Assembly (NCBI GenBank): GCA_040753955.1 | Contig: JBFMDQ010000004.1 | Location: forward strand, 5,889 to 69,888 | Source: Nitrospirota bacterium | Lineage (GTDB): Bacteria > Nitrospirota > Thermodesulfovibrionia > Thermodesulfovibrionales > SM23-35 | Length of the DNA: 64,000 bases | Direction of reading: 5' to 3' | Shown: positions 3,978 to 47,048 of the stretch, in pieces | How positions within the stretch are numbered: the stretch's first letter is position 1 | How the letters are laid out: every line of letters begins with the position of its first letter | Made by a program: the position numbers and the translations under genes | Notes under the pieces: generated by a model | What the model saw: the letters and a program-made list of their open reading frames with translations, nothing else | What the model was told of the DNA's origin: nothing | Databases searched by the model: none

Positions 3978-5777
3978 CTACCCCCTTTTAACCGAATAGA
4001 TGTAAAGTATTGATCCCAGTGGATTTTCTCCCTTCAGTATGTTTTCAGGCTTGATGCCAAACATGGGGCTTACCAGAACCATGACCTTGTCACCAATGAC
4101 TGCATAATCAAGGACAGAACCTTTTATGTCATCTATCATAACGCCTTCCTCCATAGAAAGCCCATCCCACCATAAGTTTTTAATCTGGGACCTTTTATAA
4201 CCAAGTCCCCTTGCCATCTCTAAAAAAGGAATCCTCTTGACTAAAAGAACCTCCCTGTTTCTAAGGAACAACCTATCTTTAATCGCCCATTCACCTCTGT
4301 CAATGAGTATCGAGGGAGATGACTTTTTGAAGGTTGTGAGAAAGCCCCCTGTGTCAGTTTTGCTCCTCCATAACCTTATATCTTTGTCATATAGATTAAG
4401 AAATCCTTTGTCATCGTAAGCAAGGATCAGTCTACCTGTTCGAGAGTCATCGACAAATATGAAATCATATATGTTAATCCCTTCTGGGAGTCCTATTGAG
4501 CTTCCCCTTTTATATTCTCCTTCCCATAATATACTGAATACATCACCCGTAAACCCTTCATCTTTCGAATAATCCTGGGCTATAAGTTCCTTTTCTATTC
4601 TCCGCAGAAAGACATTGTCTTTGTATAAAAGAACAAATTCCGTACCCCTCAGCTCATAGATGTAGGATACAATACCACCACTTCTAACTGAGGAGAGGGT
4701 GACCTCATCCCTCCCGTTTCTGTAAACGTCTTCTGTCTCAGCTTTTCTTCTCATTGAGGTGACGATGATCTCATCCCTTCCGTTTTCGTTAAGGTCTATT
4801 GTTTCAATCCAGAGGTGGTCGTCAAGGTTAGAGCCCTTTATATGGATTCCGCCCAGGGCAGGCTGTAGGTCCGCACCAGGCGTATAAATCCTGACATCCT
4901 TTCCTGTGCTGAGCAGAATCTCCTGGTTTCCATCTCCATCGATGTCACCTACTGTTAAAAGCCTTACGCCGAAGGGCAGGTCTACCTGTAGCCATGCCTC
5001 TTCCTTACGGAGTGTGAAGAACTCCTCACCGAACCTCATCTCCTTTGCATAGGCGGCATCGATCTTTGTATCCATCTCAGCAAACCCGAGGCCGTCAGAG
5101 ACCCAGAAAAGTCTCTGTGTGAGAAGCATGCCTGAGTCGACTATCCTGGATGTCAGGAGGAGTGCAACTTCTGCATTAAGCCTCTTCGCTTCCTTGATAA
5201 CCCCTTGTGGGTCATCCGTCTCAATGCCTGTTTCAATAAGATTAAATCTTCCTGTCTCCTTCAGAACTCTGTAATATGAGTCAGCTATATACCAGTCAAT
5301 ATCTCCTGACTGGCAGAAGAGCATACTGACTTGTGTCTCCGATATCCTGACCTTATCGCCTTCCTTTGCTTCTCCCGTAATTATGATGCCCATTGATGAG
5401 TCAATGCCGGCTTCTTTTATCTCGAGCCTGCCCACAGGAAACTCTAATTTTCCCAATGCCTTTTTTGTGACAGGGTGTATGAATGTAGCTCCTTCTCTCA
5501 GTATTGTAAATCTCATGCCAGTCTTCACAGAGTCTCCTGTCCCTAAATTAACTAAGCCCCTCTGACCCTCGACCTTTATGACTCTGCCTGTCATGGGTTT
5601 AAAATAGGAAACTGTTTCATCTCTCATTCCGTTAAGTAAATTACCATCAGCGTTAGCAGCGACAGGAAAGCATAGGGCATAGAGCACAGGGCATAGAGCT
5701 ATTAGCAATGCATACGTTAAACGGTTAAGGCAATAAAGTCCGTTTCGGTTACCCTTATCCTTTTCTCTACGAGTCAT
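3978..5777 (-). CDS. secreted/lipid-anchored FG-GAP (VCBS-like) repeat protein, function unknown
   Basis: N-terminal hydrophobic signal (LLIALCPVLYALCFPVAANA). Calcium-binding FG-GAP-like motifs DIDGDGNQEILL and DLNENGRDEIIV. Overlaps the GH57 stop by 11 nt, suggesting co-transcription. Confidence 0.5.
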   Translation of the reverse strand: MTRREKDKGNRNGLYCLNRLTYALLIALCPVLYALCFPVAANADGNLLNGMRDETVSYFKPMTGRVIKVEGQRGLVNLGTGDSVKTGMRFTILREGATFIHPVTKKALGKLEFPVGRLEIKEAGIDSSMGIIITGEAKEGDKVRISETQVSMLFCQSGDIDWYIADSYYRVLKETGRFNLIETGIETDDPQGVIKEAKRLNAEVALLLTSRIVDSGMLLTQRLFWVSDGLGFAEMDTKIDAAYAKEMRFGEEFFTLRKEEAWLQVDLPFGVRLLTVGDIDGDGNQEILLSTGKDVRIYTPGADLQPALGGIHIKGSNLDDHLWIETIDLNENGRDEIIVTSMRRKAETEDVYRNGRDEVTLSSVRSGGIVSYIYELRGTEFVLLYKDNVFLRRIEKELIAQDYSKDEGFTGDVFSILWEGEYKRGSSIGLPEGINIYDFIFVDDSRTGRLILAYDDKGFLNLYDKDIRLWRSKTDTGGFLTTFKKSSPSILIDRGEWAIKDRLFLRNREVLLVKRIPFLEMARGLGYKRSQIKNLWWDGLSMEEGVMIDDIKGSVLDYAVIGDKVMVLVSPMFGIKPENILKGENPLGSILYIYSVKRG

Positions 5778-7902
5778 ATATAAATTTTATATTAAACCCT
5801 AACCTTCTCTCATCACCAAAATCAAGCTTTTTCACGAATAGAAATGCTGTGCCCTGATAGATTCTCTCCACACCCTGCTCTGAAAGGGATATGGTCTCTA
5901 CAGGATAGTGCCAGAGATCTATCTCTTCATCAAAATTATAACCAATGCTGAGGTTCAAAGACTCATCCTTCAGATAAAACTCCTTAACATCACCATGGGT
6001 TCCCTTGTTCCTTATAGGGAGATTTTTATCACCCACAAGGATGGAAGAATAGGGAGAGCCGAAAAAGGAGATGTTAAACTCTACAGCAAAAAGTCCGGAA
6101 AATACACCATCAATTTTGTAACCTACCCTCAGTTCCAGAGGCATAGTTAATCTCAATGTCTTCAGAAGTTTTAAAGGATTGCCATTCACGATACCCTTTC
6201 TAAAAAGGTCCACGGTAACAGTATCTCCCTCTTTAATGTAATTCAATGAATAGATACCTTCAATGAAGTCACCCTGTTCCTCATACCTGGAATGCATCAG
6301 ATCGTCAACATTTGTGCCGTCCCTCAGAAAATGGTCAAGGAGTGATGCCCGCCTGTAATTGTCATAGACCATATAATCGATGATGTCTACTTCTTTTACA
6401 ATGAACTGTTCATGAATAGTCCTCGTCTCACCTGTATTAGAAACTGATGCCTGCGCGATCCTTGAATGGTAGGCCTCGGGCCTCCTCGCAATGATGTCAA
6501 GTATATTAATAGCCTTTTCCTTCAGAGATAGTTCTCTAAGGCTACCCCCCTGTTCTGTTAGCGAAAGTGAGATATCCCCCTCGCTAATATAAATATCTTC
6601 AAAACCATCACAATCATAGTCAGACCTTTCTACAGTTAATTTCTCACTAAGTACGCCTTCAGCTATGCCCTCTGCCCTCAGGAGATGCCTGTAAAGGGAT
6701 GACCTCAGGTGAGGCAGATAAAGTCCGCCAAAGATGCCGTGCCAGTAGGCATCATTACATTGGCCCTTCCAGAGCTCATGCAATAACCCCCCTATTTCCC
6801 CCCTTAGTAAGGGGGGAAATGAAGGGGGGTGAACGTTTAACTTTGAACTTTCAACTTTTAACTTTTTTATTGCTCTATGTACTTTTTTACTTATCATTAA
6901 CATGCGTTTCTGGATGTGGTTTGACTCAGGATATTTTGCGAAAAAGGAACGCCATATCCCACCTCTCAGGAGGCTCTTTGCCTTGTCCCCTATCAATCTT
7001 TGCATCTCCCTCAATGCATATTCATAATCGAGTGCCCTTTCAGGAGGAAGCACCCACTCACCCATTTCCCTGTATGATGCTGTGGGAAGATAAACCCTCC
7101 CTACAGGCCGAAACCGAGAATGATAGTCGCTGAATGTTGTCGTCTCTATCCAGTCAGAATTTTCTTCAATGGCATTAAAGAATCTTTCAAGCCAGCCATC
7201 TTCATAGCAGTGCTTGTAGGTTCCAGGCCATACACCAAACTTTTCTCCATCATCTGCCATTGTAAGCAATGGTTTGCCACCCCTCATGTGTATCTCTCCG
7301 GAGTATGAGAGAATTTCATCAATATTCCTGAAAGGTATATAATATCTCAGTTTCTCGCTACCTGGAAATACGCTGAGCTTACAGCCTTCTTCTTCTGTGA
7401 TGTAATAGCCTAAAAGGTCTTCCTCTTCAAGACCTGAAAGCTTGAAATGATAATCATCAACCGGCACATACTCGATGCCAGCTGTCGAGATATATTTTGG
7501 CATCTGTGGTTCCCATACCCTCTCTGCCAGCCACATGCCCTTTGGTGAATAGCCGAGGAGCTTTTTGATATACCCGGAGAGTTCCTTTATCTGAGATACC
7601 CTGTCCTTTTCCGGAATCGCGGAGAGTATTGGCTCGTAAAAACCTCCCGAGAGTATCTCGACCCTTTTCGCCGAGACGAGAGAATGGATCATTTCAAGGG
7701 CTTCGGGATGGCGTTTTTCAAACCATGAGAGGAGATTACCCGAATAATGAAGCACAACCTTTAATGAGGGATGAAGGTTGAGGACTTCGAGAAAAGGCAG
7801 ATAAGCCTTTCTATAAGATTCCTCAAATATATGTTCGAAATTTCCTACAGGTTGATGATTATGGATTGCAAGGATTAAATAGAGCTTTGAATTATTTACC
7901 AG
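5767..7902 (-). CDS. glycoside hydrolase family 57 (alpha-glucan processing enzyme); probable CTG start
   Basis: GH57 hallmarks: HNHQPVGNF (encoded upstream of the ORF-track start), WLAERVWEP, CNDAYWHGIFGGLYLPHLR. The frame is open from the TAA at 7923-7921, and the conserved N-terminus KLYLILAIHNHQP lies at 7890-7756. The only plausible start is CTG 7902-7900, 6 nt after GGAGGA (7914-7909). Confidence 0.8.
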   Translation of the reverse strand: MVNNSKLYLILAIHNHQPVGNFEHIFEESYRKAYLPFLEVLNLHPSLKVVLHYSGNLLSWFEKRHPEALEMIHSLVSAKRVEILSGGFYEPILSAIPEKDRVSQIKELSGYIKKLLGYSPKGMWLAERVWEPQMPKYISTAGIEYVPVDDYHFKLSGLEEEDLLGYYITEEEGCKLSVFPGSEKLRYYIPFRNIDEILSYSGEIHMRGGKPLLTMADDGEKFGVWPGTYKHCYEDGWLERFFNAIEENSDWIETTTFSDYHSRFRPVGRVYLPTASYREMGEWVLPPERALDYEYALREMQRLIGDKAKSLLRGGIWRSFFAKYPESNHIQKRMLMISKKVHRAIKKLKVESSKLNVHPPSFPPLLRGEIGGLLHELWKGQCNDAYWHGIFGGLYLPHLRSSLYRHLLRAEGIAEGVLSEKLTVERSDYDCDGFEDIYISEGDISLSLTEQGGSLRELSLKEKAINILDIIARRPEAYHSRIAQASVSNTGETRTIHEQFIVKEVDIIDYMVYDNYRRASLLDHFLRDGTNVDDLMHSRYEEQGDFIEGIYSLNYIKEGDTVTVDLFRKGIVNGNPLKLLKTLRLTMPLELRVGYKIDGVFSGLFAVEFNISFFGSPYSSILVGDKNLPIRNKGTHGDVKEFYLKDESLNLSIGYNFDEEIDLWHYPVETISLSEQGVERIYQGTAFLFVKKLDFGDERRLGFNIKFIYDS
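6787..6829. repeat. 43-bp nested polyC/polyG palindrome (copy in GH57)
   Basis: Structure C6-TATTT-C6-TTAGTAA-G6-AAATGAA-G6. It is followed at 6830-6880 by AACTTT-type short repeats. Translated on the - strand as KLKVESSKLNVHPPSFPPLLRGEIGG. Confidence 0.85.
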
Positions 7903-14811: not shown

Positions 14812-15614
14812 TTAAAGATTTCCGTAATTATCACAGTCTTTGATGGAGTTTGCGTTTTCTAAAGAATATCAAAAATAGTTATTTTTAACAGTTTTTGCTA
14901 AACTAAAATATTCTTTATTTATGCTATTTAAACTGCATTTAGGTATATATATCGTTGCTGTCCAAGATATTTTGAAATATGGTTCTCTTATTTTGGACAA
15001 GTCTTTATTATATATATTAAACAATGGGCTTTTTATGCCCCTTTAAAAAAATTATTTGCAATGCATGAATTCAAAGACGTTAAAAAAATCCTTGTTATAA
15101 AACTCAGGCACATTGGAGATGTCGTTCTTTCCATACCTGTGTTCAGGGCTTTACGTGAAAATTTTCCAAAAGCGCATATTTCAGCCTTTGTGAATTCAGG
15201 TACAGAGGATGTACTGACAGGGAATACACTTATTGATGAGATAATAGTATTTGATAGAAATATCAAAAAGATGAATCCTTTGCAGAGATATATTAACGAG
15301 CTACTATTCTTGAAATCAGTTAGGAGGAGAAAATTTGATATGACAGTTGACCTCACAAGTGGAGACAGGGCGGCGATAATATCCCTTGTTTCAGGTGCAA
15401 AGTACAGGCTTGCATACGATCCTGGCAAAGACGGGTTTTTGGGAAAGAAATATCTTTATACCCATCTTGCAAAGAAGGATGGTAGTCAGCATATGGTACT
15501 ACAGAATCTTGGCGTTGTCAGGCATTTTGGAATAAACACAGAAAATCTTTCTGTAGATTTTCATATTCCAGAAAAAGACAGGGTCTGGATTAGAAAAGTC
15601 CTTGAAGAAAATAA

Positions 15615-15653
15615 CCCCCCCTTACCCCCCTTTACTAAAGGGGGGACGGGGGG
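15615..15653. repeat. polyC/polyG palindrome (39-bp variant) at the first frame break of the GT9 gene
   Basis: Structure C7-TTA-C6-TTTACTAAA-G6-AC-G6. Frame-1 reading is NPPLPPFTKGGTGG*. Confidence 0.85.
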
Positions 15654-15840
15654 TTAAGGAATACTGTTGTACACGTTCATCCGACATCAAGGTGGCTATT
15701 CAAATGCTGGAAAGATGAGTATATGTCAGAAGTGATAAGCTGGCTTGTTGAACAGGGGGTAAAGGTAACAGTGACATCCTCGCCTGATAAAAGAGAAATG
15801 GAAAAAGCAAAGAGAATTTTGTCTTTAATCTCCGAATTTA

Positions 15841-19892: not shown

Positions 19893-20660
19893 ATGAAATT
19901 AGCTGTCTTTTTTGACAAATTTGCACCTATTCATGAGACAAAAGACCCCGGTCAAATTGTGCAGGGATTAATAGACATCGGGATACAAAGCGAGCTGTTC
20001 ACAATAGATAAGCCTGCATTAAGGAAAGGCTTTCCTTCTATTCCAATCAGACTATTATTAATGGAGCAGGCATCCGATGTTGAATACTGGCGTGGTGTTC
20101 CTTATGATGTAATTGTTGCATATACAAGGTTATATTCACAGATTGCTTATACATTAAAAAAAGCCAGTAAAACAGTCTTAGTAAAGGCTGACACCGACGG
20201 CAGACGCATTTTTCCTATATATCCGAGAGACATGTCATATTATCCGTTTAAGAAAGCAACAGAAAAAATTAAAATTTTTTATAAAAGGGTCAAAAGACGG
20301 TTAGAAGGCCGGACCCGTGCCAACAAGCTTGCCGAACACATAAATCTTGCAGATGGCGTAATAGTGGAATCTCCGCAGGCATATATCAACCTTGCTTACA
20401 TATTGTCATATTGGGAGATGCCGGAATTAATCAAAAAAATCTTTGTTATCCCAAATCCAGTCTCTGATTATTTTACTGCAACTCCACTATCTATTAAAAA
20501 CAAACTGATAGTAGCAGTTGGAGAATGGGATGGAAGGGTTGGCAGCTCGTATATAAAGAATACAGACACGATGGTTAAAGCGCTATGGTTGCTGCATCGA
20601 GAAGTAATTGCAAAAAGCTATTTACAGACAGCAGAGCAATTGTGGGAAAGAGCAACATAA
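19893..20660 (+). CDS. hypothetical protein, possibly a C-terminally truncated GT-B (GT4-like) glycosyltransferase
   Basis: Resembles a GT4 N-domain and ends shortly after IPNPV...LIVAVGEW, where a GT4 C-domain would begin. No EX7E region is present. Weak, pattern-based call. Confidence 0.35.
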   Translation: MKLAVFFDKFAPIHETKDPGQIVQGLIDIGIQSELFTIDKPALRKGFPSIPIRLLLMEQASDVEYWRGVPYDVIVAYTRLYSQIAYTLKKASKTVLVKADTDGRRIFPIYPRDMSYYPFKKATEKIKIFYKRVKRRLEGRTRANKLAEHINLADGVIVESPQAYINLAYILSYWEMPELIKKIFVIPNPVSDYFTATPLSIKNKLIVAVGEWDGRVGSSYIKNTDTMVKALWLLHREVIAKSYLQTAEQLWERAT

Positions 20661-20678
20661 TTTAACAGGATATTTACA

Positions 20679-21713
20679 ATGGAAGCTTACAAAGACAGAA
20701 AACCCAGAATTCTTATTTTTAAAGAAAGCATGGGCGGAGATCTGCAATTCTTAATGGAAACGGATGTCGCAGAGGTCTATGTCAGGAGCGCAGCGGATTA
20801 TTTTACCGAGAAGAAGAAGTTATTAAATAAAGAATATGATTTTATATTAGCAACCCCTTGGCGAGATCCTGTTTGGCATAGTGGCCGTCCATTTGTAAAA
20901 AATTGCTTTAGGGCAATAACAACACTTATTAAAAAACCGTCAACTTATTTTCCGGTGGTTTTGAGAAGATTAGTGCAAAAGACCGGAATGCGGCTTGGAA
21001 TAGTTGACTCAATTGATGCGCCGCTGATAGCAAAAAGGAATTTCGGGCTGTTGGATGTGTGTCATCGGTATTTTAAAAGGGAATTGCCCCAGAATCACTA
21101 CAATATATTTTTGTATACAACAGCAAGAAATAAGGACGCAGTAAACATTGTCCGGCAGGATTTTTTTCTGAAAAATGAAAGAAAATTAAGGCCAATACAA
21201 TTTGGGATTTCTGACAAGAAGTTTAATTTGGTAGAGCTTGAAAAGAACGAGAAAGAATACGATATTTTTTATGCGGGCAAGTCACATTATTGTACCGTAA
21301 GACAAAATGGCATTAAAGAGCTTCTACAGCTGAAGGGAGAGGGTGTGAGGGTTTATTTACCTGAGGAGAGGTTATCGCCGGAAGATTTTTACAGGGCATG
21401 CGGCAAGTCACGGTTAGTGTTGTCACCAGCAGGGTTGGGGTAGGATTGCAATCGGCATTATGAGGCTCTTGCCGCAGGAGCAGTGCCGGTGATAAATTAT
21501 CCGTGGATTGAACAATATTCAGCTTTTATTGATAGAGAACACTGCTTTTACTATGGTGTGGAGCCGTATGGATTGTTTAAAACAGTAAAAGAGGCATCGA
21601 AAGACAAGGAGCGGTTGAAGAAGATGAACGCCAATGGGCGGGAATGGATAATGAAAAATCTGACATTTAACCGCATTCTTGAATATGTTATCAAAGAAAT
21701 GATGAGCGATTAG
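20679..21713 (+). pseudogene. CgeB-like glycosyltransferase interrupted by a single in-frame TAG (21441-21443)
   Basis: ORFs 20679-21443 and 21483-21713 are in the same frame. The sequence reads ..LVLSPAGLG*DCNRHYEALAAGAVPVINYP.. straight across the stop. Paralog 13825-14811 has W at the matching spot (GKWDYG..RIFEANGCGAF). Confidence 0.6.
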
Positions 21714-29306: not shown

Positions 29307-29407
29307 AGAATACGGATAACCCTGTGGCAAGACCACAAGGAATTGTTGAGTTAAAATTTTTAAATTTTGGTCTGTAATTTTAAATTTTTCTTTTTGAATT
29401 TTAAATT

Positions 29408-30046
29408 TCACTTGATATACCCCTCTTCTTTTAAAGTTTTCATTAGACCCAAATCTTTTCTCTCCATCCTGAGAAATCTTGCAACATACTTTCCTATAAC
29501 ATCCACCTCGATATTCACAGTATCGCCAGGGCCTTTGAATCCCATCGTTGTGAGCCTTGCTGTATGTGGGATAATCACTACAGTAAAACTGCCTTTTAGT
29601 ATATTAACAACGGTGAGGCTTATTCCATCTACAGCAACTGAGCCTTTCTCAACAAGAAAACCAATGATTTCCGGAGGCGCCTCTATCTCTATCTTGAAGG
29701 CATCTCCTATATCTGTCCTTGACCTTATCCTGCCTATACCATCCACATGTCCTGAAACAAAATGCCCGCCGAGCTTTGAGTCAGGCCGAAGGGAAGGCTC
29801 AAGGTTAACACGGTCGCCAGGTCTCAGCTGACCAAGGTTTGTAGACCTCAGGGTCTCATCAGAAAGGTCGAATCTTACGGTGCCACCTTTTATATCAACT
29901 GCTGTAAGACATACACCATTGACCGAGATGCTGTCGCCTATCCTTGCATCTTTTATGATCTCTCTTGAATTCAGGGAAAGGTGGACAATACCCTTCTTCT
30001 CTATCGAAGTTACTTCCCCCATCTCTACAATAATACCAGTAAACAT
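29408..30046 (-). CDS. ribE: riboflavin synthase (alpha chain)
   Basis: MFTGIIVEMGEV N-terminus, duplicated lumazine-binding halves. Confidence 0.9.
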   Translation of the reverse strand: MFTGIIVEMGEVTSIEKKGIVHLSLNSREIIKDARIGDSISVNGVCLTAVDIKGGTVRFDLSDETLRSTNLGQLRPGDRVNLEPSLRPDSKLGGHFVSGHVDGIGRIRSRTDIGDAFKIEIEAPPEIIGFLVEKGSVAVDGISLTVVNILKGSFTVVIIPHTARLTTMGFKGPGDTVNIEVDVIGKYVARFLRMERKDLGLMKTLKEEGYIK

Positions 30047-30047
30047 C

Positions 30048-30368
30048 TTACCTCTCTGTGTCAATAGTAAACTTGAGGGTTTTTCGATATATACCGAGTA
30101 TATCTACTACCTCGAACCACGAAGTCCTAATCCTCATAATCCTACCAGTTCTGGAGACCTCTATATCTCCTTTACTTATGGGTATCTTCAACTCTTTTGC
30201 CCTTTCAAATACCTTGTCCCTGATCTCCTCCTTATTTTCGAGGGAAACCCTCGAAATTTCTTTTGCATCAGCCTTAAAGGCTAAATATCGGTAATAGGGC
30301 ATGCCGAATTTAATACCCGAATATGCAAGAAAGGCAAAAAGTAGGAGCCAAAAAATTGCCTTTTTCAT
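30048..30368 (-). CDS. small membrane-anchored hypothetical protein
   Basis: Single N-terminal TM (AIFWLLLFAFLAYSGI), 106 aa, overlaps the lepB stop by 4 nt. Confidence 0.4.
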   Translation of the reverse strand: MKKAIFWLLLFAFLAYSGIKFGMPYYRYLAFKADAKEISRVSLENKEEIRDKVFERAKELKIPISKGDIEVSRTGRIMRIRTSWFEVVDILGIYRKTLKFTIDTER

Positions 30369-39693: not shown

Positions 39694-42219
39694 ATGATAG
39701 AAAGCATTTTGCAAAAATTCACCACAAAGTATAATTTTAAAACCATGTATAGAGACCCAAGGATATTCTTAGTAATATTCCTGTGCTCCTTTTCGAGCCT
39801 TGCCTATGAGATAGCCCTCACGAGGATATTTTCTGTCTCCCTCTGGTACCACTTTGCTTTTATGATAATAAGTATTGCCATGCTTGGCATCGGTGCAAGC
39901 GGGACATTACTATCCCTCTATCCTAAACTTAGAAGCCTATCCAATATCGGTATTTATAGCCTGTTGCTCGGTACCGGAATATCTCTGAGTTATCTTTTTT
40001 CAAATCAGATACCCTTTGATCCAGTGAGGCTTTCTTGGTCAAGGATGCAGTTGCTTTATATCGGTCTCTACTACGTAACACTCTCGATGCCATTTTTCTT
40101 CACAGGATTGATCATCGCCACAGCATTCTCCTGTATAAGCGAGAAATCAGGTATGATTTATGGTGCAGACCTTCTCGGTGCAGGTATAGGCTCAATAGGA
40201 ATCCTGTATCTCATGACAATCACAGGGCCTGATAAGGCTGTTTTTATCCTCTCTTCAATCGTACTCATGGCATCATTCATTATCGGCAAGAAAAGGCTGA
40301 AGGCAATCTCTCTGGTATTAATCTTACTTAACCTTTCTGCTCTGTTCTTTCAACCTGTATTTATTAACCTCAGGATGTCTCCATACAAGGGGCTTCAGGT
40401 AGCCCTGAGATATCCTGAAGCAGAACATTTAAAGACCTATTTCAGTCCCTTCTCAAGGATAGACACGTTTAAGAGCCCTGTAGTGCGTTTTGCCCCTGGC
40501 CTGAGCCTCAGGTATCTTGATAAACTCCCTGAACAGATAGGGTTTTCAATAGACGGAAGCGAGATAAATGCTATAACAGCTTTCCATGGGGGGATCCCCC
40601 AAAGGGGAACGGAGTCCCCCTTTGGCACTTTTCTTAGATACCTGCCATCTGCACTCCCCTATGAAGTAAGCGTAGGGGAGGATGTATTAATCCTTGACCC
40701 AAAAGGAGGTCTTCAAGTCATCGTTGCAGCTCATTACAGCTCAAAAAATCTCTATAAGGTCGAGTCCAATCCTCTCTTGATAAAAATCATCAGGGATGAA
40801 TTCAAAGCCTTTTCTGGCAATATCTACAGGGACGATACATGGTCAGGGCTCGGAAGGTCGTGGCTCAAGTCAGGTTACAAGAAATTCGATATTATCGACA
40901 TCTCATTGATGGGTTCAGCACCCTCTGGTTCTTTTGGAATATCAGAGGACTACAGGTCTACTGTTGAGGCATTCATGGAATACATAGGCCATCTAAAACC
41001 GGAGGGGCTTTTGAGCATAAACCTCTTTATATTACCGCCTCCACGAATAGAATTGAGACTCATAAATACCATTATTACAGCTATGGAGGAGCTCGGGATA
41101 AAAGATATGGAAAAACAGGTTGTAGCTATTCGAAGTTGGGGAAGTATGTGTATTCTCATAAAAAGATCACCCTTTACCCTTAATGAGATAGAGGCTATCA
41201 AGGAGTTTTCAAAAGACAGACGGTTCGATTTAATACACTATCCGGGCATCAAAGAAGAGGAGGCAAACGTCTATATTCGAATGCCCTCAAATGAATATTT
41301 CACTGCCTTTAAAAATATCCTGAATCCCGAAACACGTACAGGGTTTATACATGATTATATCTTTGATATAAGCCCTGTCCGTGATGACAGCCCATTTTTT
41401 CATTATTATCTCAAACTCAAAAACATCAAGGAGACCTATAAAATTATGGGGGAAAAATGGCAGTATTTTATAGAAGAAGGATACATCCTTCCAGTGATCT
41501 TCATGCAGGTAATGTTTTTAAGCCTGATTCTTATAATTCTCCCGGCCTTATCAAGAAAATCATATGTCATTGCGAGGAGGTCGTTTCGACCGACGAAGCA
41601 ATCCCAACAGCAAATACTAAGAGGCAAAGACGAGATTGCTTCGCCCCGTATTGAATACGGGGCTCGCAATGACATGGGAAAAAGGTTTTTACCTTATTTC
41701 GCCTTCCTAGGTCTCGGATTCATGTTTGTAGAGGTGTCTCTGATCCAGAAGATCATCCTTCCCCTTGAAAACCCCTCCTATGCAGTCGCTACCGTCCTCA
41801 CATCAATCCTCATAAGTTCAGGTATCGGGAGTCTATTGAGTCACAGGGTTTCAGGTCTCAGAAGCCCCTCTGTAACAATCGCTCTCTCCTTTCTTATCAT
41901 CCTTTACAGCGTTCTTCTCCCATCTATCCCAGATATAATTTCTCCTTATTCGATACCGGTAAAGATTATCTCTGTATTCTTCATCCTCATGCCGCTCGGC
42001 CTTCTCATGGGTATCCCCTTCCCCGCGGGTCTGAAAATCCTCGGTGAGAAGAATGAATCATTAATCCCCTGGGCATGGGCGATAAACGGTTGCCTATCAG
42101 TCCTCGCACCTATCCTGACTATTATGTTAGCAATAGTCATCGGGTTCAAAATGGTCCTCTGGCTGGGGGCATTAACATATGTGATGGCGTTTGTATTTAT
42201 AAAGAAATTTGCCTCATGA
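39694..42219 (+). CDS. polytopic membrane protein with central spermidine-synthase-like domain; carries two intragenic repeat insertions
   Basis: The N-terminal TM block LAYEIALTRIFSVSLWYHFAFMIISIAMLGIGASG is typical of membrane-fused spermidine-synthase-like proteins. Soluble central domain, C-terminal TM block. Repeats at 40588-40625 and 41566-41673 are read through in frame. Confidence 0.6.
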   Translation: MIESILQKFTTKYNFKTMYRDPRIFLVIFLCSFSSLAYEIALTRIFSVSLWYHFAFMIISIAMLGIGASGTLLSLYPKLRSLSNIGIYSLLLGTGISLSYLFSNQIPFDPVRLSWSRMQLLYIGLYYVTLSMPFFFTGLIIATAFSCISEKSGMIYGADLLGAGIGSIGILYLMTITGPDKAVFILSSIVLMASFIIGKKRLKAISLVLILLNLSALFFQPVFINLRMSPYKGLQVALRYPEAEHLKTYFSPFSRIDTFKSPVVRFAPGLSLRYLDKLPEQIGFSIDGSEINAITAFHGGIPQRGTESPFGTFLRYLPSALPYEVSVGEDVLILDPKGGLQVIVAAHYSSKNLYKVESNPLLIKIIRDEFKAFSGNIYRDDTWSGLGRSWLKSGYKKFDIIDISLMGSAPSGSFGISEDYRSTVEAFMEYIGHLKPEGLLSINLFILPPPRIELRLINTIITAMEELGIKDMEKQVVAIRSWGSMCILIKRSPFTLNEIEAIKEFSKDRRFDLIHYPGIKEEEANVYIRMPSNEYFTAFKNILNPETRTGFIHDYIFDISPVRDDSPFFHYYLKLKNIKETYKIMGEKWQYFIEEGYILPVIFMQVMFLSLILIILPALSRKSYVIARRSFRPTKQSQQQILRGKDEIASPRIEYGARNDMGKRFLPYFAFLGLGFMFVEVSLIQKIILPLENPSYAVATVLTSILISSGIGSLLSHRVSGLRSPSVTIALSFLIILYSVLLPSIPDIISPYSIPVKIISVFFILMPLGLLMGIPFPAGLKILGEKNESLIPWAWAINGCLSVLAPILTIMLAIVIGFKMVLWLGALTYVMAFVFIKKFAS
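40588..40625. repeat. G/C-tract palindromic hairpin inside the 841-aa membrane protein gene
   Basis: GGGGGGATCCCCC overlaps the hairpin CCAAAGGGG-AACGGAGTC-CCCCTTTGG. Translated in frame as HGGIPQRGTESPFGT. Confidence 0.7.
41566..41673. repeat. 108-bp MITE-like element with perfect 11-bp terminal inverted repeats, inserted in frame (36 codons)
   Basis: Termini GTCATTGCGAG ... CTCGCAATGAC. Internal inverted pair GAAGCAATC/GATTGCTTC and hairpin CCCCGTATTGAATACGGGG. Flanked by AT on both sides. Translated as VIARRSFRPTKQSQQQILRGKDEIASPRIEYGARND. Confidence 0.8.
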
Positions 42220-42286: not shown

Positions 42287-43009
42287 TCACTTTTGTGCTT
42301 CGCCAACCATTGGCACAAAGGCCACAGGGCCCATCTGCTCGACATCAAGCTCGCCCTTCTTCTTTGTCACAAGGGTCAATACCTGATAATAGACTGTGCT
42401 TCCTAAAGGGATTATGAGTCTTCCTCCCTCTTTAAGCTGCTTAATCAAGGGCGGAGGGACATGGTTCGCAGCAGCAGTTATGATTATTGCATCAAAGGAG
42501 GCATATTCTTCCCATCCAGAATAACCGTCAGCATGTTTCACCTTCACATTCTTATAACCGAGGTCTTTAAGCCTCTTAGCCGCCATGTCTGCAAGGGATT
42601 TCCTTATCTCTATCGTGTAAACCTCTTTTACTATTTCTGCCAGTACCGCTGCCTGGTAACCTGAGCCTGTGCCTATTTCAAGCACCCTGTCAGTTGGCCT
42701 TAACATTAATGCCTCTGTCATTAGGGCAACGACATAGGGCTGAGAAATTGTCTGTCCCTCTCCTATCGGTAGCGGATAATCTGCATATGCCCTACCCCTC
42801 AGATATTCATCCACAAAAAGGTGCCTCGGAATCTTTCCCATCACCTCAAGAACCCTTTTATCTTTTATACCTCTGCCCTTTATATCATTCTCTACCATGG
42901 CCTGACGCTTCTGTAGATAAGGGTCCGATGCTGAAAGATCACAAGGGGATTGAAAAAACAAAAGGAGAAACAAGTAAAGGGTTATGGAAGACAGGACAGG
43001 GTGTTTCAT
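42287..43009 (-). CDS. pcm: protein-L-isoaspartate O-methyltransferase (with signal peptide)
   Basis: [19 protein letters not shown] and [17 protein letters not shown] motifs. Confidence 0.9.
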
Positions 43010-43380
43010 TGTATTCTTGCCTTGAGAACAAGGGTAACCATAGGCCTTTTAGGGTCATTGGAGGAAACCCGTACGCTTTTATAGATAGGGCCCACTCTGC
43101 CCTTTATATCAATCTTTGCAATAACCTTTCCTTTTTCCCCAGGCTTCAGGCGGCTCGAACTGGCCATCACCGCTGTGCACCCTCAGGAGGGAATCAGTTT
43201 TTCTATGACGAGCTCCTCATTACCTGCATTTGTAAACTCAAATGTATATTCGATCATTTCACCTACATCTATTGTCCCAAAATCATATCTGTCTGTATCG
43301 AACAATATTAAAGGCTGGGAATAGGAGACCACTGGGAAGAGGAGTAAAAACAATAGCAAAAAAATCTTTCTCATGGACAT
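43006..43380 (-). CDS. DUF1573 family secreted protein with in-frame TGA at the conserved Cys (selenocysteine candidate or nonsense pseudogene)
   Basis: Reads [42 protein letters not shown][TGA][35 protein letters not shown]. The TGA (43185-43183) aligns with the first Cys of the DUF1573 SCGCT motif. The downstream part stays open for 58 codons and ends in an ATGA overlap with the pcm start. Confidence 0.6.
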
Positions 43381-43542: not shown

Positions 43543-46062
43543 ATGCAGAATTACATAACAATAAAAGGCGCAAGAGAGCATAATCTCAAGAATATCGACC
43601 TCTCAATACCCAGAGATACAATAACTGTAATAACAGGCCCATCAGGTTCAGGTAAATCATCCCTTGCTATCGATACGGTATATGCAGAGGGACAGAGGCG
43701 CTATGTCGAAAGTCTTTCAGTTTATGCAAGGCAATTCCTTGAGCAGCTCCGTAAACCCGATGTGGACTATATTGAGGGACTGTCTCCGTCTATCGCTATA
43801 GACCAGAAGACCGCAATAAGGAGTCCTCGCTCGACCGTCGGCACCATTACCGAGATATACAACTACATGCGCGTCCTTTACACGAGGATAGGCAAGCCAT
43901 ACTGTTATAATTGCGACTCTCTAATATCAAAACAGGAATCTAAGGATATTATTAATTCCGTTATGTCCTTACCCCGGGGCAGCCGTCTGCAAATCCTTGC
44001 ACCCATAGTCAGGGACAGAAAGGGCGAATACAGGAAAAAGCTTCAGCAGATGAGAAGAGAAGGGTTTATAAGGGCAAGGATAGATGGAAGGATGATGGAT
44101 CTCACAGAGGATATTGCCCTTAAGAAGCAGAAACGCCATACCATAGAGATTGTTATAGACAGGCTGATTATAAAGCCGGGCATTGATCGCCAGATAAAGA
44201 ATGCAATCGAAACAGCCCTGAGTTATTCGGATATTGTAGTAATAAACTTGATTGATGAAAACAGGGATATCCTGTTTTCGAAGACCCTTGCCTGCCCAAA
44301 ATGCGGAATTAGCTACCCCGATGTAAACCCTATGTTCTTCTCCTTTAATAGCAAGCAGGGTGCCTGCCCGAGATGTAATGGCCTTGGTTTTGAGAACATC
44401 GAGGAGAACTCTACCGAGCTTGAGGACCAGAAATATTGCAGACTCTGTAATGGTTTAAGGTTGAGAAGAGAGGCATTAAACATAAAAATACAGGATATAA
44501 ACATAGGTGAATTTGCAAGGATGTCTGTGAGGGATGCGCTGTTTTTTATCAACAATCTAAAACTCACGGAGAGAGAGCAGACAATTGCATCTCGTGTTCT
44601 TAAGGAGGTCAAGGACAGACTTAATTTCCTCGAGAAGGTAGGATTAGGTTATCTCACGCTTGATAGGTCATCCCTTACGATCTCGGGTGGAGAGTCACAG
44701 AGGATAAGGCTTGCAACACAACTGGGCTCTTCCCTGACAGGGGTTCTCTATATACTCGATGAGCCAACAATAGGAATGCATCCGAGGGACTGCAAAAAAC
44801 TCCTCGAAAGCCTTTCGTCAATAAGGGATGCTGGGAACACCGTTATCGTTGTCGAGCACGATGAGGAGACAATAAGGTGGGCAGACCATGTTGTGGATAT
44901 GGGGCCTGGGGCAGGGCTGAATGGTGGCTGGGTTACAGCCTCAGGGAAACCCGAGGAGATAGAGAAAAACGAAAAGTCAATAACAGGAAAATACCTCAGT
45001 GGCTCGATATCAATAGATACTCCTCTTATAAGGAGAAAGCCAGAGGACTTTATCAGGATAATAGGTGCTCAGGAATTCAATCTCAAGGATATCAATGTCA
45101 ATATCCCCCTCGGAACCTTCGCATGCGTAACAGGGGTTTCAGGTTCAGGCAAAAGCACACTCGTGCTGGAGGTACTCTATAAGGCACTCTTAAAGGAAAT
45201 TTACAGGAGCAAATTGACACCCGGCCGACATAAAGAGATAATAGGAGCGGATAAGATAGATCGTGTGATATGTGTTGACCATTCACCTTTGGGAAAGACC
45301 CCCAGATCTAATCCAGCAACCTATACCGGGGTCTTCTCATTTATTAGAGAGTTATTCTCACATGTGCCTGATTCAAAGATAAGGGGCTACACCCCTTCAA
45401 GGTTCAGTTTCAACCTGTCTGGCGGAAGATGCGAATCCTGCCGCGGAGATGGACTGATCAAGGTAGAGATGCACTTTCTCCCCCATGTTTATATACCGTG
45501 CGATACCTGCAAGGGGAAAAGATACAATAAGGAGACCCTCGAGATCAGATATAAAGGTAAAAATATTGCTGAGGTGCTTGATATGACTGTATCCGAGGCA
45601 CTTCAATTTTTCTCATTCATTCCTTCAATAAGGCAAAAACTCGAGGTCCTCGAAGATGTCGGGCTTGGGTATTTACAGCTCGGACAGCCTGCAGCAACAC
45701 TTTCAGGGGGTGAGGCACAAAGGGTGAGACTCTCAAAAGAGCTCGGGAAAAAATCAACAGGCAACACGCTCTATATACTCGATGAACCCACAACAGGGCT
45801 TCATTCTGTTGATATACATAAACTGCTCAATGTAATAAACAGACTCATAGATTTAGGAAATACGGTCATCATAATAGAACACAATCTCGATGTGATAAAA
45901 TCAGCCGACTACATTATAGACCTCGGGCCTGAAGGTGGAGAAGAAGGAGGAAGGGTTGTTGCAGAAGGCACCCCAGAGGAGGTCAGCATGAACCCCAATT
46001 CCTATACAGGGAAATTCTTAAGGAATAAACTGTTAAGGCCCAGTCACGCAAGAGTAGCATGA
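43543..46062 (+). CDS. uvrA: excinuclease ABC subunit A (short form lacking the insertion domain)
   Basis: Both ABC modules ([21 protein letters not shown]), zinc modules and LSGGE signatures. 839 aa versus about 940 in E. coli. Confidence 0.92.
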
Positions 46063-46229
46063 AGATTATCTGCCCTATATGTAAAAAAACAACAACGTGG
46101 GAGGAAAATCCCTGGAGGCCATTTTGTTCCGAGAGGTGCAAACTCATTGACCTCGGCAAATGGGTATCAGAGGAATACAGGATTGCAGGGGAAAAGCAAG
46201 AGGAGAAGAAAGAGGAAAAGAAAGAATAA
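46059..46229 (+). CDS. yacG: DNA gyrase inhibitor YacG (zinc-finger protein)
   Basis: Not in ORF track (56 aa). Reads [40 protein letters not shown].., matching the YacG CPxC..PFCSxRCxxIDLGxW pattern. ATGA overlap with the uvrA stop. Confidence 0.7.
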
Positions 46230-46244
46230 AGACAGGAGGTTATT

Positions 46245-47048
46245 ATGGTCAGGATAGCAGTTGCAGGGGCAGCAGGAAGAATGGGTAGCAGAATCACTGC
46301 CCTTTCGAGGGAATATCCTGAATTGAAACTCACAGGTGCCTTCGAAAAAAAGGGGCATGATGCGGTGGGAAAGGACATTGGACTTGTAATCGGAATAGGT
46401 GAGATAGGGATAAAACTTCAAGACAGCCTTGAAGATATTATTGACAATGTAGATGTAATTATCGACTTTACTACTCCGAGCTCGACAAAAGAAAACGTAA
46501 GGCTTTCGGCTAAGAAAGGTAGGGCAATGGTGATAGGAACAACCGGATTCTCAAGGGATGAAATGAAGGAGATAGAGGCTTCGATAAAAAATATACCATG
46601 CGTTATGTCATCCAATATGAGCGCAGGCGTAAATCTCCTGCTGAAGGTGTTGCAGAATACAGCAAAGGTTTTGGGTGACGAATACGATATAGAAATTATC
46701 GAGGCACACCACAGGATGAAAAAGGATGCACCCAGTGGCACGGCAATGAAGATGGCACAGTTAATTGCAGATGCTATAAACAGAAATCTTGATGAGGTTG
46801 CTGTATACACAAGAAAAGGGCTTATTGGCGAGAGAACCAGGAAAGAAATTGGCATACAGACTATACGTGCAGGTGACATTGTAGGAGAACATACCGTTAT
46901 ATTTGGTGGCCTCGGTGAAAGGATCGAGATTACCCATAAGGCATCAAGCAGGGACACATTCGCAAGGGGTGCATTAAAGGCAGCTATGTGGGTATATGGT
47001 AAACCAGCAGGTCTTTATGATATGCAGGATGTGCTTGGGCTGAAGTAA
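46245..47048 (+). CDS. dapB: 4-hydroxy-tetrahydrodipicolinate reductase
   Basis: GAAGRMG N-terminus and EAHHRMKKDAPSGTA catalytic motif. Confidence 0.95.
   Translation: MVRIAVAGAAGRMGSRITALSREYPELKLTGAFEKKGHDAVGKDIGLVIGIGEIGIKLQDSLEDIIDNVDVIIDFTTPSSTKENVRLSAKKGRAMVIGTTGFSRDEMKEIEASIKNIPCVMSSNMSAGVNLLLKVLQNTAKVLGDEYDIEIIEAHHRMKKDAPSGTAMKMAQLIADAINRNLDEVAVYTRKGLIGERTRKEIGIQTIRAGDIVGEHTVIFGGLGERIEITHKASSRDTFARGALKAAMWVYGKPAGLYDMQDVLGLK

Follow-up and report, generated by a model that had tools for sequence, protein, structure and literature searches.

A conserved in-frame TGA in the gene of a small, predicted exported DUF1573 protein of Nitrospirota is a strong candidate for a selenocysteine codon

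We analysed a stretch of 64,000 nucleotides (nt) from a Nitrospirota bacterium (assembly GCA_040753955.1, contig JBFMDQ010000004.1; the whole stretch is called the window hereafter), which carries on its minus strand a gene of the DUF1573 family (PF07610) interrupted by a single TGA. An earlier note on this DNA had proposed the TGA as a candidate codon for selenocysteine (Sec). Our results support the proposal, and we put at roughly 0.88 the probability that the TGA encodes Sec and that the locus specifies a small exported DUF1573 selenoprotein. This reading draws on the presence of TGA at the same codon in nine lineages, on homologs with cysteine at that position, on selection acting downstream of the TGA, on a conserved hairpin, on constraint at synonymous sites and on a conserved coupling to the gene pcm. 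The features of the gene on which the argument turns are the following.

43380..43006, minus strand: putative DUF1573 selenoprotein gene, a single frame of 124 codons including one candidate Sec-UGA, with a signal peptide and one DUF1573 (PapD-like immunoglobulin (Ig)) domain
43185-43183, minus strand: candidate selenocysteine codon TGA, aligned with the first Cys of C-G-C-T
43177..43185, minus strand: U-G-C motif (TGA GGG TGC), presumed redox or metal-binding centre
43183..43380, minus strand: 65-amino-acid (aa) entry of the list of open reading frames (ORFs), the N-terminal piece ending at the TGA

Translation of the minus strand from 43380 to 43006 (MSMRK...KARIQ*) gives one internal TGA followed by 58 sense codons. 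The TGA thus stands where the earlier note had placed it, at the first Cys of the DUF1573 motif, and the 65-aa ORF that stops there is likewise as it had described. With Cys written in its place, residues 26-120, which span the interruption, fit positions 2-95 of the 98 in the Pfam DUF1573 profile (E=7.9e-24; 84 bits against a gathering cutoff of 26.1), which places the protein in the family. Each half taken alone fits its own half of the model (E=5.7e-08 for the N-terminal piece and 2.6e-05 for the C-terminal piece). Because the match runs across the TGA and the halves are complementary, this is a single DUF1573 domain interrupted by TGA and no chance open frame. Translation probably begins at the second ATG, at 43374 (MRK...), which we favour since the relatives begin with MRK, MKM or MRT.

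The genetic code of the window is standard, since TGA is the ordinary stop of 12 of its 43 long ORFs, including those of rseP, uvrA and pcm; TGA 27260-27258 also ends an ORF that Pfam assigns to ribH (DMRL synthase). The earlier note had likewise observed that TGA acts as a normal stop elsewhere, and a code in which TGA is read as sense throughout is ruled out by the same count. No other TGA-interrupted gene was found in the window: two same-frame ORF pairs, 29367-30284 (plus strand) and 45983-46957 (minus strand), are without Pfam matches and overlap real genes on the opposite strand, and none of the remaining same-frame pairs on the window list resembles an interrupted gene.

We then compared the locus with that of relatives on more than 20 contigs from NCBI, JGI, ENA and Logan assemblies, which we group into nine lineages (the window, L001, L002/L008, the L012 group, L029, L030, L031, L032 and L033). 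All nine have TGA at the homologous codon, and the proteins of the relatives are 57-90% identical to that of the window. Two relatives came from a scan of species-representative genomes, L001 (Thermodesulfovibrionales metagenome-assembled genome (MAG) JASEEX01, 89% protein identity) and L002 (a Nitrospirota MAG, 60%), both with TGA at the same codon as the window and an open frame after it. A metagenome scan added one contig, L008, which equals L002 over the first 405 nt of the gene and possibly comes from the same sample. A HMMER search with the 65-aa fragment retrieved a 63-aa product (P0102) whose 90% cluster comprises nine 63-aa products ending in ...KLVPS and, in addition, a 133-aa product that reads W at this position; the contigs of this cluster (L012-L024, from JGI, ENA, Logan and NCBI samples) have TGA at the site in all cases. 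A profile search added four JGI gene calls of full length, P0173-P0176, which are diverged (57-66% identity) and read 'W' at the site, together with many N-terminal fragments stopping at the site and C-terminal fragments beginning just past it. In the DNA of L029-L032 and of L033 the site is TGA in every case, and under table 11 the DNA does not translate to the products with W that the databases give. The search for further homologs with TGA, which the earlier note had called for, is thus answered: counting the window, nine lineages share it.

These comparisons bear directly on the simplest objection, a base-call or assembly error that turned TGC or TGT into TGA in this window. TGA is indeed one base away from a Cys codon, and the sole independent contig with identical sequence (L011, found through a look-up of pcm) is uninformative on the matter because it begins 5 nt past the TGA; neither the 65-aa ORF of the window nor its uvrA had an exact counterpart on record when looked up in the contig collection. 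More than 20 contigs, which differ in sample and assembler, nevertheless show the same TGA; L001, 93% identical, is one of them, and another is an independent contig from Logan whose 63-aa product is that of L001. An error of this kind, which the earlier note had listed as a way in which its proposal could fail, is effectively ruled out.

In homologs that lack the TGA, the TGA column is occupied by Cys. Indeed, C-G-C-T is present in 14 of the 14 such sequences aligned, with C78, G79, C80 and T81 invariant (alignment A5), so that the Cys/Sec pairing anticipated by the earlier note is observed. Furthermore, the frame downstream of the TGA holds no additional stop or frameshift in any of the nine lineages. 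For the window and L002, the part downstream of the TGA has a ratio of non-synonymous to synonymous substitution rates (dN/dS) of 0.35, at a dS of 0.81, and the upstream part one of 0.12-0.17. With an intact frame in all lineages and purifying selection downstream, the decayed nonsense pseudogene that the earlier note had offered as a refutation is not borne out.

The far end of the frame is tied to a second gene, in an arrangement that the earlier note had recognised and that proved to be conserved.

42287..43009, minus strand: pcm, protein-L-isoaspartate O-methyltransferase (NF001453, 261 bits against a cutoff of 188, residues 33-239)
43006..43009, minus strand: ATGA overlap between the terminal stop of the putative selenoprotein gene and the start of pcm, read from the sequence

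The stop and start also overlap in the relatives, as GTGA in L001 and as TAGTG in L002 and L012 (four of four lineages examined). In seven of the nine lineages pcm lies downstream of the Sec-DUF1573 gene, as its partner in one operon, and uvrA is usually upstream. The overlap implies translational coupling of the putative selenoprotein gene to pcm. The pcm product has a hydrophobic N-terminal extension of about 30 residues, with orthologs in L001 (5369..6103), L008 (6408..7145) and L012 (10402..11139), which suggests that it is exported or membrane-anchored. The gene context of two Cys homologs, P0006 and P0009, was uninformative.

Both the frame and the coupling argue against ordinary termination at the TGA, by which the gene would yield a 65-residue secreted fragment and perhaps a separate C-terminal fragment started at an ATG or GTG six codons downstream, as a split or decaying gene. 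Such an outcome would agree with the gene callers, which annotate 63-aa products, among them NCBI MCX5719788.1, as well as separate 'MASSS...' ones, with a Met or Val codon present six codons past the TGA in all lineages, and with a dN between the window and L001 that is higher downstream than upstream. The downstream AUG/GUG is conserved, however, because this codon belongs to the conserved stem of the hairpin described below (U20 G21). More importantly, the TGA and an unbroken downstream frame have been kept in nine lineages, with a window-L002 synonymous divergence of 0.8-2 and the downstream dN/dS of 0.35; a beta-sandwich that ended behind its third strand would fail to fold; a reinitiated C-terminal half without signal peptide would reach a different compartment from the N-terminal half; and it is the far stop, rather than the TGA, to which pcm is coupled. 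Taken together, the TGA in nine lineages, the intact frame, the Cys column and the dN/dS of 0.35 exclude a nonsense pseudogene and a sequencing error, and make a terminated or split gene very unlikely.

If the UGA is recoded, a signal would be expected in the mRNA, and the alignment of the 60 nt after the UGA in the nine lineages, numbered from the U of UGA, contains two conserved elements.

43149..43168, minus strand: hairpin of the selenocysteine insertion sequence (SECIS) type within the coding sequence, GA-UGGCC-AGUUCG-AGCCG-CC, defined on the nine-lineage alignment
43128..43137, minus strand: stretch rich in purines, GAAAAAGGAA, encoding E-K-G-K and lying 46-55 nt past the UGA, with near-invariant nucleotides in the nine lineages

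The consensus hairpin is UGGCY-AGUUYR-AGCYR, with a core stem of nt 20-24 and 31-35 and a 6-nt loop that carries G-U at positions 2-3 and begins 21 nt after the UGA. U20 G21 G22 C23, A25 G26 U27 U28 and A31 G32 C33 are invariant in the nine lineages. The hairpin is extended by the basal pairs 19:36 and 18:37, which exchange G-C, A-U and G-U among lineages. In the hairpin so extended, 87% of cells are paired, compared with 16-48% when the partner strand is slid. According to the account of bacterial SECIS (bSECIS) elements in PMC13188914, these have a loop of 3-9 nt, an upper stem of at least 4 bp, a G in the first two loop positions, a distance of 16-37 nt from the UGA and a minimum free energy of at most -7.5 kcal/mol; the loop, stem, G position and distance of the consensus hairpin all agree with these values. 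As in the canonical element of the Escherichia coli fdhF type (the Zhang & Gladyshev 2005 model, as that account presents it), this is a stem-loop that lies within the coding sequence, immediately 3′ of the UGA, with a 6-nt apical loop bearing G then U at positions 2-3 and an upper stem of 5-7 bp. It differs from the canonical element in that the window hairpin has no Rfam family match, its lower stem is not conserved and a C·A lies next to the loop. As judged from the alignment, the hairpin is conserved and compatible with a bacterial SECIS, for which it is a candidate. It is not the structure that had first been proposed by eye: of the two stems suggested in the earlier note, CAGCGG...CCGCCTG, 7 nt downstream, exists and forms part of the minimum-energy fold of the window but is only partly conserved in relatives, and CCAG...CTGG is not conserved.

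The codons of this region are also constrained beyond the protein that they encode. In the nine lineages, 26 codon columns combine a conserved residue with codon degeneracy; only four of them are codon-invariant, and all four lie +8 to +18 codons from the UGA. They comprise AGT and AGC, which are six-fold Ser codons inside the hairpin, and GAA and GGA, which belong to GAAAAAGGAA. This amounts to 4/9 columns in the zone after the UGA and 0/17 elsewhere (hypergeometric p = 126/14950 = 0.008). A pairwise test of synonymous sites in the SECIS zone (window or L001 against L002 or L012) was not significant; the test is informative only with the nine lineages. We also note that GAAAAAGGAA resembles a Shine-Dalgarno-like AAGGA; it may belong to the recoding signal or reflect a constraint at the protein level.

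The course of events that we propose is the following. A ribosome would arrive at UGA 43185-43183, and the hairpin beyond it (UGGCC-AGUUCG-AGCCG, its apical loop bearing G-U) would recruit SelB·GTP·Sec-tRNA(Sec), so that Sec would be inserted rather than translation terminated and the 58 further codons would be read. The product would be an Ig-like (PapD/ASH-type) beta-sandwich of about 100 residues, delivered to the periplasm by its N-terminal signal peptide, with a Sec-Gly-Cys turn where homologs carry Cys-Gly-Cys. This turn would most likely act as a redox centre, either through a reversible selenenylsulfide or as a binding site for a metal or a sulfur species, in periplasmic electron or thiol-disulfide transfer. 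Translation of pcm, too, would probably be driven by the ribosomes in which Sec insertion succeeds.

The lineage is one in which such decoding is known. Thermodesulfovibrio genomes hold a full selA/B/C/D set plus genes for tRNA(Sec)-like tRNA(Cys) (PMC5389517), and Thermodesulfovibrionia carry other Sec proteins, the class decoding UGA as Sec, for example in MccSep (PMC13510729). As is predicted for the clade described here, MccSep, a multiheme cytochrome c of sulfur reducers that is common in Thermodesulfovibrionia, is a periplasmic selenoprotein tied to c-type haem. It belongs, however, to an unrelated protein family, and haem binding in our clade is confined to certain orthologs with a C-terminal fusion (L033) and absent from the window protein.

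The tRNA(Sec)-like tRNA(Cys) genes (selC*) raise a further question, namely whether the UGA is recoded by a SECIS/SelB-like route that inserts cysteine, always or when selenium is scarce. The comparative evidence supports recoding and is silent on whether Cys or Sec is inserted. Moreover, selC* tRNA(Cys) genes occur in Thermodesulfovibrio as well as in contigs of probable Nitrospirae origin, and in delta-proteobacteria opal-suppressing selC* come with a dedicated SelB*/CysRS* (PMC5389517). Since such genes occur in Thermodesulfovibrio, we keep Cys at the UGA as a small possibility. Against it, the opal-anticodon selC* with their own selB*/cysS* are described for Desulfobacterales and Syntrophobacterales, not for Thermodesulfovibrio, and the Thermodesulfovibrio genomes also contain the full selA/B/C/D set (PMC5389517). 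A Cys product could, besides, be achieved by a plain TGC or TGT, yet UGA has been kept over deep divergence in nine lineages.

Several results weigh against Sec insertion at this UGA, or against parts of the model that we derive from it. Neither selA, selB, selC nor selD was found in the 64-kb window, by a Pfam survey of about 50 larger ORFs and an RNA scan, which returned a single tRNA, tRNA-Leu. Regarding the hairpin, covariation is modest and not above shuffle controls, the loop-closing pair of the window is a C·A mismatch common only to L033, and an Rfam search of the region in gathering and permissive modes gave nothing relevant. A rough rule-based bSECIS scan passed L001 and L012, with the window and L002 failing within a 2 kcal/mol band, and the same scan passed 18% of random TGA sites in the window. 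Folds of single sequences do not stand out (z-scores between -0.2 and -0.8 relative to shuffles); since the hairpin folds no better than shuffles, thermodynamics alone cannot support a SECIS. Regarding selection, the window and L001 give a dN/dS of 0.79 downstream, on about 15 differences, with relatively more non-synonymous change. Regarding the motif, L002/L008 have U-G-Y, the second Cys being replaced by Tyr (TAT; L002 5196..5204, same sequence in L008), and without that Cys they are ill-suited to a simple selenenylsulfide mechanism; P0178 carries S-S-G-T where S-U-G-C is expected, so that neither residue is present. As U-G-Y (L002) and S-G-T (P0178) show, natural variants can lose the second Cys and even Sec itself. 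Finally, a literature search, in which four papers mention the family and two of these are the selenoprotein reviews, returned no experimental data on the function of any DUF1573 protein.

Two further observations concern natural variants. L002/L008 have new Cys residues at other places (VPCGD, SSSCLKP). In three 67-aa proteins of the MRTLFF clade (P0188, P0191 and P0192), an in-frame internal deletion joins ...SIVFD to E(E/K)GFISSVV..., and both the Sec codon and the hairpin are gone; these could be real alleles or assembly artefacts.

The earlier note had stated that DUF1573 was not, to its knowledge, a listed selenoprotein family. This was mistaken. The selenoprotein tables of PMC9312934 and PMC13188914 contain an entry 'DUF1573 domain-containing protein, PF07610, motif UGC', both citing Zhang & Gladyshev 2007, and NCBIfam holds NF041425, 'OS_HP2 family (seleno)protein'; the listing dates back to 2007. 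Zhang & Gladyshev 2007, on the delta-proteobacterial symbionts of Olavius algarvensis, does not use the name DUF1573, and the place of the entry in the tables corresponds to the OS_HP2 family of that paper. As DUF1573 is already listed as a selenoprotein family with exactly the UGC motif, the implied novelty is unsupported.

The window protein shares with OS_HP2 the PF07610 domain, Sec replacing the first Cys of C-G-C ('UGC') and the existence of Cys homologs; its candidate Sec occupies the first position of U-G-C, the motif given for the family in PMC9312934 and PMC13188914. The clade nevertheless scores below the NF041425 cutoff of 100 bits (70.5 for the window, 65.8 for the L012 type and 58.3 for the L002 type), which leaves it outside the curated subfamily. 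Generic Cys DUF1573 proteins from Bacteroidales and delta-proteobacteria score 57-80 bits, no worse than the Sec clade, and the separation from OS_HP2 is one of model score. Among named organisms, the nearest relatives belong to Nitrospirota/Thermodesulfovibrionales and not to Desulfobacterota. The pcm partner, the usual upstream uvrA and the cytochrome c-fused variant of the clade are all absent from the passages on the family in PMC9312934, PMC13188914 and Zhang & Gladyshev 2007.

Judging from these sequence comparisons, the Nitrospirota clade is a further predicted Sec branch of the known DUF1573 selenoprotein family, outside the curated subfamily and mis-annotated. NF041425 misses the whole clade because of its cutoff, and in public annotation NCBI MCX5719788.1 (P0164) is a 63-aa 'DUF1573 domain-containing protein', while JGI P0171 and P0173-P0176 have Trp at the TGA. 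Once the model is corrected, a selenoprotein would be recovered from nine or more diverged lineages, of which the closest named are Nitrospirota/Thermodesulfovibrionales. Knowledge of Sec decoding itself is unchanged by the finding.

A bolder proposal is that the clade forms a distinct periplasmic module, probably born of a Cys-to-Sec conversion independent of the OS_HP2 branch, in which an exported Ig-like selenoprotein, fused in some species to a c-type cytochrome, would be coupled in translation to the exported pcm. Sec insertion, and with it selenium supply, would gate pcm, and the U-G-C turn would serve as the partner redox or sulfur site. If true, selenium supply would control, through Sec insertion, the expression of an envelope protein-repair enzyme. 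We consider such a module unlikely, and retain the Sec branch of a known family as our reading of the clade.

Export of the protein is predicted from its N-terminus.

43318..43380, minus strand: predicted Sec-pathway signal peptide (by inspection: basic n-region, hydrophobic core and S-Y-S cleavage motif before QP)

The pattern at the end of the signal peptide, ...(A/V)(S/A)(Y/F)(S/A)-QP, is found in all nine lineages. An AlphaFold model of the Cys homolog P0006 (predicted local distance difference test score 85) is a seven-stranded sandwich in which C-G-C (residues 78-80, alignment A5) lies on an inter-strand turn between the modelled strands 71-76 and 80-85. The nearest solved folds to this model are PapD-like/ASH Ig domains, namely HYDIN 2e6j, the C-terminal domain of VesB and Porphyromonas gingivalis 2qsv. 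No catalytic precedent was found among these three, and a sequence search of the PDB gave no relative.

A link to electron transfer comes from gene fusions. In L033 (about 4788..5480, GCA_036704645.1), within the same uvrA/pcm context, DUF1573 with U-G-C is fused to a C-terminal domain that has two CxxCH motifs (CRSCH and CIMCH) and is assigned by Pfam to cytochrome c. P0213-P0221 and P0178 have the same architecture of DUF1573 followed by two CxxCH. What DUF1573 does is hinted at for the first time by its context, namely the fusion to cytochrome c and the conserved coupling to an exported pcm. Furthermore, Sec at the C-G-C turn would mark this turn as the active centre and speak against a disulfide of purely structural role. 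Based on these features, we infer that the window protein is a periplasmic Ig-like module for redox or chalcogen handling, whose full translation would also drive expression of pcm.

The turn may be compared with CXC redox motifs. The CGC tripeptide was reportedly found by Woycechowsky and Raines in 2003 to be a mimic of protein disulfide isomerase. As in that tripeptide, two chalcogen residues would surround one Gly, here on a turn of an exported protein. In contrast to CXC redox motifs, the scaffold is Ig-like with no thioredoxin fold, and natural variants have U-G-Y or S-G-T.

Some neighbouring genes are recorded here as observations in their own right. Convergent with pcm lies a gene for an 841-aa protein (39694..42219, plus strand) that has no Pfam match and appears by eye to be a multi-pass membrane protein, with hydrophobic N- and C-terminal blocks; it is syntenic in all longer related contigs (L008 7155..9689; L012 11351..13861). 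Elsewhere in the window, ORFs of 255, 254 and 198 aa without Pfam match lie within a glycosyltransferase/lipopolysaccharide cluster at 8-26 kb (19893..21443, plus strand; 15061..15657, plus strand), and a 598-aa ORF, also without Pfam match (3978..5777, minus strand), adjoins a GH57 alpha-amylase/4-alpha-glucanotransferase gene at 5767..7752.

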